NCBI RefSeq assembly: GCF_001677475.2
Contig: NZ_CP015229.1
DNA length: 64,000 nucleotides
Strand: one strand, 5' to 3'
Source: Escherichia coli
GTDB lineage: Bacteria; Pseudomonadota; Gammaproteobacteria; Enterobacterales; Enterobacteriaceae
How positions within the stretch are numbered: position 1 is the first letter of the stretch; each line of letters opens with the position of its first letter. Made by a program: the position numbers. This document shows, one piece after another, positions 9,001-12,000 of this stretch.

Positions 9001-12000
9001 TCAAGTCGATGATGATAGACTTGCAGAACTTATTCCTGATTTTTATGTCTTTCCAGAAAAAAGTGTAAGCTATAATATACTAAAGCAAGGTAAGCATGCT
9101 TTTATTTTGAGTATTGGTAACAGAGCAATAATGCATTGTGCAAGGTAAACTTAAATAGATAACAAAAAGATGGAACCTCGTTAATCATAAAACAATAAAA
9201 TTAAATATGCTTGTAGTATATGCCAGTATAAAGCATCAAAGTTTTGATCAACATCTTTCATTTTAGATATCACCTTGCAATGTAAAATATCATGTATCAA
9301 CAACATCTGGTGCAAATCCATGAGTCGAACTCAACATTCATCTTAGCTCTATTATTATTCCTTCGTACAGTCGATGTAAACAATACAGAAAGAGGATTAT
9401 TAAGAACCAGTTTACTTAGTGAATCAATAGAGGAAAGGACTAACGTTTCTTTAAAAGAATTGATTTCATCATCTGTTAAACTAAACTCATCATTGACAGA
9501 TCGTGAGATATAACTGTTTTTAACTTTACTCTTTACGTTGACTTTACTGACAGAATTAACATTCACATATCTTGATTTTAGTGCCCATGATGTTGTTTGC
9601 GTGAGAACCTTCTCAGCATTAAGGAATTTTTTTAACGGAATCCTTGGTTTCTTTTTCGAGTCCGAATTTACAATATCATGCATATAGACCATTTCATGAA
9701 TCTGCGAAAACTCAATGTCCATTATATACCTCACATTTTTACCGTGACTCGATGTTACTGTTCAATAATCACCTTCCATCAATACTAAATTTAATACCCC
9801 TAATGTGCCGATAACAAATATAGTCATTCTACGTAACGTCTCCATAAGGTGATAACCTTGATCAAATGAATTTCGAAAATAATAAAAGAAATCTTTTGAG
9901 ATGTTTGTCACGAATAAAGCTATATATGTTACCAATATCATTTCGAGTGTGCACACTATCTATCTGTTTTTTCAGGATATAAAAAACAACATGTAAGTTA
10001 TGTAAATTGCCGATGCTACTAAGTAACATTATGGTAAAAAAAGTAAAAATGAGCGATTTTTGATAGAATAAAGCATGAGAAAAGGTGATATTTGACATTA
10101 TCAGAAGCTGCGAATTCGGATTTTGCTCTAATCAAATGAGAGAAATGTAAAATGAAGCCACGAAATATTAATAATAGCCTACCACTGCAACCATTAGTTC
10201 CTGATCAGGAGAACAAAAATAAGAAAAATGAAGAGAAATACGTGAATCCAGTTAAAATTACGATGAGGTCTGGTTTAAATTATATTGAACAAGAATCTCT
10301 TGGAGGAAAATATCTAACACATGATTTGTCAATAAAGATAGTGGATATTTCTGAAGAAATAATTCAGCAAGCAATATTATCGGCTATGAGCATATATAAA
10401 TTTCCGATAACAGATGATTTAATGAGTATGGCTACAAATGAACTCATAAAACTGGCCAAAATAGAGAATAATTTAGACCTGAATAAATTCTCTACTATAT
10501 GCACCGACGTTCTATCCCCCCTCGTCACCAGACATAATAAAGAAAAAAAACCAGACGACTTACTACCCTTCGCAAAAATCCCCTTTTTAATTTTCATCGA
10601 AAAAATGGAAATTGATAATATGAATCAAGGTCATGCATATTAAGGCATTTATGAAATGTCGTAAATAAGATAACTAATAAGGTGAATATTAGCAAAACAA
10701 CTAATGACATTATTGGTTTATAGTGGTCAGTATTTTTACTAATAATGAACCAATATACCCATAAGCAATGCAAGCTTAAAACTCATAATTCAAAAAAGAT
10801 AAATGCAAAAAAATGATGAGTCAATTAATAATAATTTAGCATCACGAAACACATCACAGAGGAATATTATGATCACAGATACACTTGAAATATTCAATAA
10901 CAGTGATGAATGGGCAAGTCAACTAAAACACGCATTATCACAAGGAGAAAATCTGGCATTACTACATGGATTGACTCCTGATATCCTTGATAGAATATAT
11001 GCATATGCATTCGACTACCATGAAAAAGGTAATATAACGGACGCAGAAATTTATTATAAATTTCTGTGCATTTATGCGTTCGAAAATCATGAATATCTAA
11101 AAGGTTTTGCATCAGTATGCCAGTCAAAAAAGAAATATCAACAAGCATATGACCTTTACAAACTAAGTTACAATTACTCCCCGTATGATGACTATTCAGT
11201 TATTTATCGTATGGGTCAATGTCAAATTGGGGCTAAAAATATCGATAACGCAATGCAATGTTTCTATCATATTATTAACAATTGTGAGGATGAAAGTGTT
11301 AAGAGCAAAGCGCAGGCATATATTGAACTCTTAACTGATAATTCAGAAGATAATGGCTAAGCATTACAATCTTTTGGTTAAAATTGCTGGTTATAGTGCA
11401 GTTAACTACTATGACCAGCTTCTCTTATGTTTTCTTAAATCAACATCTTAAAACAGTTAAGCACACACTATAAATTATTATTTTTCAACGCGTTAGAGAA
11501 CAATCTATTTTATCAAAATTGAATAAGGCTATTTCAGATTACATCACTGAATTCCTAAGATAAATTAGTGAACACAACCATAGATATGTCGAATGTAAAC
11601 TCCTATAGCATTAATGACACATAAATATGAATAGCCACAATTTCTATTGCTTATGCAGGATGCAAGAAACCAATTTTTTCATAGAGGTTAACTAATGGAC
11701 TTAGAAAATAAATTCTCATATCATTTTCTTGAGGGATTAACGCTCACGGAAGATGGAATTCTTACTCAAGGAAATGAGCAGATTTATATTCCACCGAAAG
11801 AGTTAGGAGTATTGATCGTATTACTTGAATCCGCTGGTCATGTTGTCCTGAAAGATATGATCATCGAATCAGTATGGAAAAATATTATTGTAAGTGACGA
11901 GTCCCTGACAAGATGTATCTATTCTTTGCGCTGCATTTTTGAAAAAATTGGCTATGATCGTTGCATAGAAACAATCTACCGGAAAGGTTATCGTTTCAGT

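Follow-up and report, generated by a model that had tools for sequence, protein, structure and literature searches.

The yqeJ-ygeF interval of the Escherichia coli ETT2 left arm: a probable junction of transcription units with a candidate divergent control region

Silencing and activation in ETT2 and related systems

One of the closest described systems is the H-NS/StpA chromosomal hairpin, for which an 11.4-kb fragment of K-12 reaching from yqeG to ygeL (2,985,045-2,996,445) serves as a model, with H-NS filaments and a strong hairpin signal (Gavrilov et al. 2025, PMC12460168). These hairpins colocalize with H-NS ChIP signals. The K-12 RNA-seq data of the same study gave log2 changes in the hns and hns stpA mutants, respectively, of 1.6 and 5.5 for yqeJ, 1.9 and 5.1 for yqeH, and 1.6 and 6.7 for ygeH, all three genes being near-silent in the wild type and 30- to 100-fold up in the hns stpA double mutant (PMC12460168). 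Another system to be compared is SPI-1, where HilA activates the invF and prgH promoters against H-NS; YgeH is HilA-like, can replace HilA, and is repressed by H-NS, and ygeG and yqeI of EAEC 042 were down in a ygeH mutant but up in an hns mutant (PMC4210603). The gene for this regulator has its own promoter, and specific binding of H-NS to the ygeH promoter fragment has been shown (PMC4210603). Two sites have been assigned to the interval between ygeF and ygeG: one for H-NS from genomic SELEX and one for RNA polymerase found in vitro. A GadX ChIP-exo peak was assigned to yqeK/ygeF (PMC4918353).

The stretch considered here, positions 9149-10151 of a 64,000-nucleotide window of E. coli DNA, comprises 1,003 bp with 31.0% GC and is the gap between the end of yqeJ (9148) and the start of ygeF (10152) in the ETT2 island (left arm), as it had been delimited in the initial annotation. 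Gene set and gene order are identical to those of ETT2, with 96-99% identity to thousands of E. coli chromosomes, and the order yqeH-yqeI-yqeJ / yqeK / ygeF-ygeG-ygeH matches annotated E. coli records with high identity. The locus also displays the mutational attrition known from this island, with homopolymer frameshifts, small deletions, and IS insertions. The stretch is an ordinary, already known part of ETT2. A search for the locus on plasmids returned mislabeled chromosomes only, and scans of reference genome contigs were empty save for one chance match; the E. coli species representative is likely to be without the locus.

The K-12 counterpart of the stretch (2,989,787-2,990,553) lies within the model hairpin fragment, and the island including this stretch is AT-rich foreign DNA whose expression H-NS and StpA together suppress almost completely in K-12. 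Two differences from the hairpin system exist: the stretch does not contain a high-affinity H-NS motif, and the published occupancy is that of the K-12 fragment, which is devoid of block B, one of two conserved blocks described below. In contrast to ETT2 in K-12, the strain analyzed here retains the ancestral full-length spacer between yqeK and ygeF and an intact ygeF. A divergent spacer with conserved elements upstream of its genes would be in line with the HilA-type logic of SPI-1, but SPI-1 lacks counterparts of yqeK, yqeL, and ygeF.

The high AT content that had drawn attention to the stretch holds in comparison to the window mean of 43.9% GC and to flanks of about 50%, but it is not a local feature, being shared by the whole island (about 28 kb, from about 6.3 to 34 kb of the window) with its GC content of 32-38%. 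Within the island, the stretch belongs to the lowest 3% of all 1,003-bp windows. “Long A/T runs” was too strong a description: the longest run has 7 nt and four runs have at least 6 nt, which is ordinary for the island and about 1.3-1.5 standard deviations above mononucleotide shuffles.

yqeK, yqeL, and the convergent spacer

The gene yqeK (9297-9722, minus strand) encodes 141 amino acids without a match in Pfam or NCBIfam, so that its earlier description as a protein without domains stands. It is an orphan of the genus Escherichia, with relatives in E. coli and E. albertii only among 1.84 billion representative sequences. The E. albertii homologue is intact, with 141 aa and a gap-free alignment at 40% identity. 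The dN/dS ratio was 0.19-0.22 in comparison to the O157-like, K-12, and L004 alleles and 0.41 in comparison to E. albertii. The ratio of 0.19-0.22 and the intact 141-aa homologue in E. albertii show that yqeK is a genuine protein gene under purifying selection, although it evolves fast and is confined to Escherichia. A T7/A7 homopolymer within yqeK (9627-9633) is a frameshift site, where a 1-nt change results in a truncated allele of 47 aa that was present in eight metagenome contigs of the deletion type (see below).

Several database matches to YqeK with low identity resemble reads that are error-laden or base-converted, and one match, P0062, is a YqeK-YgeF chimera; all of these were discarded as artifacts. 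The structure of YqeK predicted with AlphaFold from an alignment of 6 sequences was unusable, its mean pLDDT being 39.7.

The initial annotation had counted yqeK as the only annotated gene in the stretch but overlooked the 26-aa yqeL (9181-9261, minus strand), which is b4683 of MG1655 and is listed by PGAP as a hypothetical protein. The conservation of yqeL is confined to its N-terminal MKDV, and the changes within E. coli nearly all alter amino acids. It is shortened in the lineage L004/L005 and does not have a homologue in E. albertii. Neither yqeL nor ygeF nor one antisense ORF gave a match in Pfam or NCBIfam. The Shine-Dalgarno sequence of yqeL, as read from the sequence 7 nt ahead of its ATG, is a copy of the octamer AAGGTGAT (9269-9276, minus strand), which occurs seven times in the window, four of these copies being located in 9269-10089. 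In 3 of 3,000 Markov simulations, an 8-mer was repeated as often as this one. Between yqeL and the convergent yqeJ on the plus strand remains a spacer of 32 bp (9149-9180), which is poorly conserved (60% in comparison to L004) and in which no intrinsic terminator was found.

Conserved blocks and a deletion between yqeK and ygeF

The 429 bp between yqeK on the minus strand and ygeF on the plus strand (9723-10151) do not contain an annotated gene in the records inspected. This region between two divergent genes carries two phylogenetic footprints, which were recognized by comparison to E. albertii and are newly found details within the known locus. Block A (9803-9866, minus strand) is the proposed promoter and operator of yqeK, and block B (10040-10070, plus strand) is a proposed rightward promoter; both are non-coding. 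The earlier suggestion that control sequences may be located in the stretch has gained from this result: the intergenic region does hold two strongly conserved blocks.

The identity between E. coli and E. albertii was 90.6% in block A and 86.7% in block B but 52% in the DNA between them, 58.5% in yqeK, and 66% in yqeJ, with a protein identity of 40-54% for the neighboring genes. In the 1.5-kb alignment with E. albertii, block A provides the best 30-nt window, and block B has a 23-nt core without any difference among E. coli, L004, and E. albertii. Among 53 E. coli sequences, no segregating site was found in either block, compared to 10.4 per 100 bp between them, with 19 nt of block A being fixed by the search pattern through which these sequences had been gathered. 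The test of conservation refers to only three lineages: E. coli, L004/L005, and E. albertii. Both blocks are kept in E. albertii despite the absence of ygeF from this species. They are missing where a locus possesses yqeJ without yqeK, as is the case for loci with a YqeJ-like protein in Citrobacter and others. The contigs of E. marmotae stop within yqeJ, so that no spacer sequence was available from this species.

Block A holds the palindrome AAGGTnATCACCTT and, on the minus strand, a −35-like TGGAGA (9844-9839) and a −10-like TATATT (9822-9817). Block B contains the palindrome AAAAAT-GAGCG-ATTTTT (10045-10061) and, read from the sequence of the plus strand, the extended −10-like motif TGATAGAAT (TGnTAGAAT) at 10061-10069; its −35 motif is poor. 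Promoter-like matches were not more common in the region than expected (16, compared to 13.0 ± 3.8 in shuffles). The basis of the promoter assignments is a set of weak matches to the consensus together with the conservation. On this basis, blocks A and B are probably promoter-operators, as candidates, of yqeK and of the rightward ygeF/ygeG unit. The GadX peak would be located at about 10168-10187 of the window, just within ygeF, assuming that MG1655 version 2 coordinates had been used.

Part of this region has been lost from K-12-type strains, which miss a 236-bp segment (9855-10090, defined by alignment; repeat family D13). The deletion is bounded by AAGGTGATA, a direct repeat of 9 bp with copies at 9846-9854 and 10082-10090; its register is therefore ambiguous by 9 bp. 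Two copies of the octamer on the plus strand are parts of these repeats, copy 3 (9846-9853) in the left one and within block A, and copy 4 (10082-10089) in the right one. A perfect 9-bp repeat bounding the loss with one copy left behind is a textbook case of slipped mispairing between short direct repeats. The locus was present in 3,649 of 5,426 complete E. coli genomes and the segment in 1,101, meaning that about 69% of the carriers are without the segment. Because the L004/L005 lineage and E. albertii retain the full form, the deletion is the derived state. A second, independent deletion comprises 103 bp with a 4-bp microhomology.

The K-12-type deletion takes out block B. The downstream gene ygeF (10152-10643, plus strand; 163 aa), for which no homologue was found in E. 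albertii, is intact here but a frameshifted pseudogene in K-12, where a poly-A tract has lost 2 bp. Among the metagenome loci, ygeF was intact in 0 of 39 of the deletion type compared to 10 of 19 of the full type. A single inherited event, and not a series of independent replicates, probably underlies this link between the deletion and the broken ygeF.

With a probability of roughly two in three, three transcription units of the ETT2 left arm meet in the stretch, which would include a divergent control region. The first unit would be the rightward yqeH-yqeI-yqeJ, ending here, and the second the leftward yqeK with the tiny yqeL, while the control part would be the 429-bp region between yqeK and ygeF. 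Block A may be the core promoter of yqeK with an upstream operator, with a predicted start at about 9810 on the minus strand. Block B may function as an extended −10 promoter or as an operator of the rightward unit, which would be ygeF-ygeG in E. coli and ygeG in E. albertii, with a predicted start at about 10076 on the plus strand. A regulator of the island such as YgeH, or GadX, may counter silencing at these blocks, and the loss of block B would be part of the mutational decay of the arm in K-12-type strains.

Alternative readings and the meaning for ETT2

Among the alternatives, the one in which 9149-10151 itself is the nucleation site of H-NS, with silencing spreading over ygeF, ygeG, and ygeH, survives best but is unlikely. 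The low GC rank of the stretch within the island, its nearly central position in the K-12 fragment of 11.4 kb that forms the strong hairpin and the filaments, and the strong derepression of the flanking genes in the hns stpA double mutant are consistent with this possibility. The H-NS motif TCGATAAATT, however, had no match with up to two mismatches in 9149-10151, whereas the spacer between ygeG and ygeH (11467-11566) contained three matches within 100 bp. The specific binding of H-NS is that to the ygeH promoter fragment, and the SELEX site is that between ygeF and ygeG and not in the stretch. An operon ygeF-ygeG-ygeH, as assumed in the initial annotation, is not supported because ygeH has its own promoter, and the in vitro RNA polymerase site between ygeF and ygeG also speaks against it. 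Moreover, about 69% of the strains have lost the 236 bp without a known effect. Silencing by H-NS, as it had been suggested for this DNA, is correct as a published property of the whole island, but there is no indication of nucleation in 9149-10151.

Block A overlaps the start of a hydrophobic ORF of 27 aa with a usable Shine-Dalgarno sequence (METLRRMTIFVIGTLGVLNLVLMEGDY; 9762-9845, minus strand), and part of the conservation of block A could for this reason be due to coding or to effects at the RNA level. Copy 2 of the octamer (9768-9775, minus strand) is inverted with respect to copy 3, and this AAGGTGAT/ATCACCTT pair, which could also pair in RNA, brackets the ORF and the candidate yqeK promoter. 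Block A would then mark the gene of a real small membrane protein, perhaps similar to type I toxins, with RNA-level controls explaining the conservation, which is quite improbable. The ORF is intact in E. coli including K-12, while it has 23 aa in E. albertii; both species share its start codon, the hydrophobic core, and an AAGG Shine-Dalgarno sequence 10 nt upstream, and 7 of the 12 changes in comparison to E. albertii are at third codon positions (P of about 0.05). These features have to be weighed against an ORF that ends prematurely in L004/L005, with a stop at codon 15, against codon changes of which 3 are synonymous and 7 non-synonymous, and against a C terminus that differs in E. albertii. 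Codons 1-14 are conserved at synonymous sites, too, for which coding alone is not sufficient. No match of the 27-aa ORF at an E value of up to 10 was found in Pfam or NCBIfam, the ORF was never annotated even in MG1655 despite intensive searches for small proteins, and scans of Rfam and for promoters did not reveal an antisense promoter or a partner RNA. The 27-aa ORF is probably not a gene, a rejection that is provisional. A combination of both readings, with block A as a promoter plus a conserved gene, common to E. coli and E. albertii, for the 27-aa hydrophobic peptide, the ribosome-binding site of which would be gated by AAGGTGAT/ATCACCTT and which would have been missed owing to silencing in the laboratory, is very doubtful.

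A similarly small chance is given to the blocks being a non-coding RNA or a structured leader of yqeK, in which the anti-Shine-Dalgarno-like AUCACCUU would pair with the downstream AAGGUGAU. In all four sequences, 9853-9846 could pair with 9775-9768 to form a helix of 8 bp, including one G-U change, and the octamer is locally overrepresented. On the other hand, Rfam 15 did not yield a match at an E value of up to 1 in 6000-14000 of the window, and a scan of 8600-10900 did not reveal a terminator-like site. The fold of the candidate RNA was not more stable than that of shuffles (z = +1.05), and 1 of 26 pairs was changed on both sides, with a covariation term of −0.56 kcal/mol, which is no real covariation. 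The downstream octamer is not the ribosome-binding site of yqeK, and the upstream arm would be outside the RNA if transcription starts at about 9810. The small RNA proposed for the stretch has, accordingly, not found support in the Rfam, terminator, and folding results.

The two overlapping minus-strand ORFs reported initially are present, ORF64 (9762-9956, 64 aa) and ORF78 (9862-10098, 78 aa), neither with a match in Pfam or NCBIfam. ORF64 is an accident of this strain: it was opened by one SNP and contains an in-frame stop in L001, L003, and L004/L005. ORF78, which is located almost wholly within the 236-bp segment missing from K-12-type strains, is not a conserved gene. That both ORFs are fragments of a decayed gene is hardly credible, for although ORF78 is open in every full-type E. 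coli checked and is occasionally predicted by gene callers, indels and stops interrupt it in L004/L005, the homologous DNA of E. albertii does not contain it, the protein search with ORF78 gave only E. coli self-matches among 5.8 billion proteins, ORF64 is open in this strain alone, and the conservation is found in two short blocks and not across the ORFs.

The stretch belongs to a well-known, largely decayed island arm, the silencing of which by H-NS/StpA has already been established experimentally, and its importance beyond a tidier annotation is small. Nevertheless, K-12, the strain used in nearly all mapping of H-NS, GadX, and promoters referred to here, is without 236 bp of the control region and without one of the two conserved blocks. 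This means that K-12 data are not transferable to strains with an intact ETT2, such as O157, EAEC 042, APEC, and the strain of this window. Blocks A and B provide precise targets for testing how YgeH or other regulators turn on the arm.

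Gene content between yqeJ and ygeF

According to a gene map based on the ORF tables, three annotated E. coli records, and MG1655, the stretch at 9149-10151 is exactly the gap between yqeJ and ygeF, as given by the initial annotation. It is preceded by yqeH (6838-7530), yqeI (7864-8673), and yqeJ (8666-9148) and followed by ygeF (10152-10643; 163 aa, intact in the window strain), ygeG (ending at 11360), and ygeH (11695-13071), all on the plus strand. The minus strand of the gap carries yqeK (9297-9722), named before as the only annotated gene, and the overlooked 26-aa gene yqeL (9181-9261; b4683 in MG1655), and an intergenic spacer of 429 bp (9723-10151) follows. 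The window contains the ETT2 island of E. coli, with a GC content of 32-38% from about 6.3 to 34 kb and roughly 50% outside; with these ~28 kb of low GC (6300-34000), the island is apparently full-length, which that of K-12 is not. At 31.0% GC, the stretch is AT-rich relative to the genome but unremarkable within the island, albeit in the lowest 3% of the island windows, and its supposedly long A/T runs are modest and typical of the island (longest, 7 nt; about 1.3-1.5 standard deviations above shuffles). In some E. coli genomes, the 2-kb segment equivalent to 8600-10700 contains an inserted IS1 or IS3.

YqeK had no match in Pfam or NCBIfam, and its predicted structure was unusable (pLDDT 39.7). 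Word-indexed and exhaustive protein searches restricted its homologues to E. coli and one distant lineage, Escherichia albertii, traced via its YqeJ, where YqeK is intact (141 aa, 40% identity, gapless). The dN/dS ratio was 0.19-0.22 within E. coli and against L004/L005, a divergent lineage labelled E. coli, and 0.41 against E. albertii. The intact homologue and these ratios mark yqeK as a real orphan gene that evolves fast. Of yqeL, the first four residues alone are kept across lineages, changes within E. coli are nearly all amino-acid changing, and E. albertii has no counterpart; its ribosome-binding site, AAGGTGAT, 7 nt ahead of the ATG, is strong. L004/L005 contain a 59-bp insertion between yqeL and yqeK. 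Synonymous divergence from this lineage is uneven across 8666-10643 (0.10 for yqeI and yqeJ, 0.41 for yqeK, 0.77 for ygeF, and 0.30 for ygeG), a jump that suggests a recombination breakpoint near yqeL.

Frameshifts fall in homopolymer tracts: the A7 tract of yqeK (9627-9633) gives rise to an allele of 47 aa, present in 8 metagenome contigs, and the ygeF pseudogene of K-12 results from a 2-bp deletion in a poly-A tract (about 10544-10551). The 1108-bp NCBI contig P0062 encodes a predicted 162-aa protein with YqeK residues 1-27 fused to YgeF at a common KPR motif; the two genes being divergent, this would need an inversion or, more likely, is a chimeric assembly.

The two minus-strand ORFs of 64 aa (9762-9956) and 78 aa (9862-10098) do exist. 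The former is open in the window strain only, with a stop in L004/L005 and in the comparison loci L001 and L003; the latter is open in E. coli with the full-length spacer, broken in L004/L005 and E. albertii, and gave no matches beyond self-hits in E. coli in a search of 5.8 billion proteins. Neither this search nor the comparison of ORF conservation revealed a gene remnant, which speaks against the proposed decayed gene.

Two conserved blocks in the spacer

Two near-identical islands stand out when E. coli, L004, and E. albertii are aligned, block A (9803-9866; 90.6% identity to E. albertii) and block B (10040-10070; 86.7%, with a 23-nt core identical in all), compared to 52% for the DNA between them, 58.5% for yqeK, and 66% for yqeJ. 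Among 53 E. coli sequences, both blocks contained no segregating sites, versus 10.4 per 100 bp between them, with 19 nt of block A being fixed by the retrieval pattern of this sample. On the yqeK strand, block A carries a −35-like TGGAGA and a −10-like TATATT just downstream of the palindrome AAGGTnATCACCTT; on the ygeF strand, block B carries an extended −10-like TGATAGAAT, and also the palindrome AAAAAT-GAGCG-ATTTTT. Blocks A and B are probably promoter-operators, block A leftward for yqeK and block B rightward for ygeF/ygeG.

A less likely alternative is that block A is conserved as part of a gene, since it overlaps the start of a hydrophobic 27-aa ORF (9762-9845, minus strand). This ORF has an AAGG usable as a ribosome-binding site, is kept in E. 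albertii with 23 aa, and its changes favour third codon positions (P about 0.05); however, non-synonymous codon changes outnumber synonymous ones by 7 to 3, the frame ends with a stop at codon 15 in L004/L005, and the ORF matched no family. An RNA element in block A, like the small RNA proposed initially, found no support, with no Rfam match, no terminator found, a fold z of +1.05, and essentially no covariation.

The candidate promoter-operators persist in E. albertii, where yqeK faces ygeG over 587 bp (6051-6637 of L081/L082). ygeF is absent there by tblastn, so that either E. albertii lost the gene or the E. coli lineage acquired it. Loci with yqeJ but without yqeK lack both blocks. In the relative L084 (5484-5952), yqeF-yqeG-yqeH-yqeI-yqeJ are directly followed by a ygeH-like gene, without yqeK, ygeF, ygeG, or either block; judging from this arrangement, the yqeK-ygeG module behaves as a separable cassette.

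Deletion and octamer cluster

In K-12, as in most E. coli, the spacer is shorter by 236 bp and has lost block B. The ends of this deletion are a perfect 9-bp direct repeat, AAGGTGATA (9846-9854 and 10082-10090). The locus occurred in 3649 of 5426 complete genomes and the 236-bp segment in 1101, so that about 69% of the carriers are deleted. With the long form kept in L004/L005 and E. albertii, the deletion is, by this comparison, the derived state. In metagenome contigs, ygeF was intact in 0 of 39 deletion-type versus 10 of 19 full-type loci, an association that probably reflects one inherited event. Locus L066 has an independent 103-bp deletion in the same spacer (9901-10003 equivalent) with 4-bp microhomology (ATGT), which spares both blocks.

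The octamer AAGGTGAT has 7 copies in the window (2.3 expected), 4 of them within 821 bp (9269-10089); an equally repeated 8-mer appeared in 3 of 3000 simulations. One copy at the stretch is the ribosome-binding site of yqeL, the deletion repeats account for two, and an inverted pair of copies flanks the candidate yqeK promoter. These copies may be either binding sites or duplication relics. ATAAGGTGA was seen again upstream of ygeG (10677-10685).

Silencing of the island

The K-12 region 2,985,045-2,996,445 (yqeG-ygeL) has served as the model of a chromosomal hairpin formed with H-NS/StpA, and H-NS filaments were observed on a cloned yqeG-ygeL fragment; the same source reports the flanking genes yqeJ, yqeH, and ygeH as almost silent in the wild type, with increases of log2 1.6-1.9 when H-NS is lost and of 5.1-6.7 when StpA is lost as well (PMC12460168). 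In EAEC 042, H-NS binds the ygeH promoter, and YgeH is required for ygeG and yqeI, both up in an hns mutant (PMC4210603). A GadX ChIP-exo peak of K-12 was assigned to yqeK/ygeF (PMC4918353). In vitro RNA polymerase sites of K-12 adjoin yqeL and lie between ygeF and ygeG, the latter accompanied by an H-NS site (PMC3946193, PMC5493296), which argues against ygeF-ygeG-ygeH as a single operon. The high-affinity H-NS motif had no match with up to 2 mismatches in 9149-10151, while the ygeG-ygeH spacer has three (2 mismatches each) within 100 bp (11467-11566), in agreement with three predicted H-NS sites and H-NS binding at the ygeH promoter of EAEC 042. Together with the published data, this indicates that silencing is an island-wide property and that nothing singles out this kilobase as its origin: the silencing suspected initially is supported for the island as a whole, its nucleation here is not indicated.

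The stretch is an ordinary part of an island that is silenced and decaying, and it has been characterised before. New, though modest, are the two conserved blocks with a probable control function, the deletion between direct repeats by which K-12-type strains have lost one of them, and the local clustering of AAGGTGAT.
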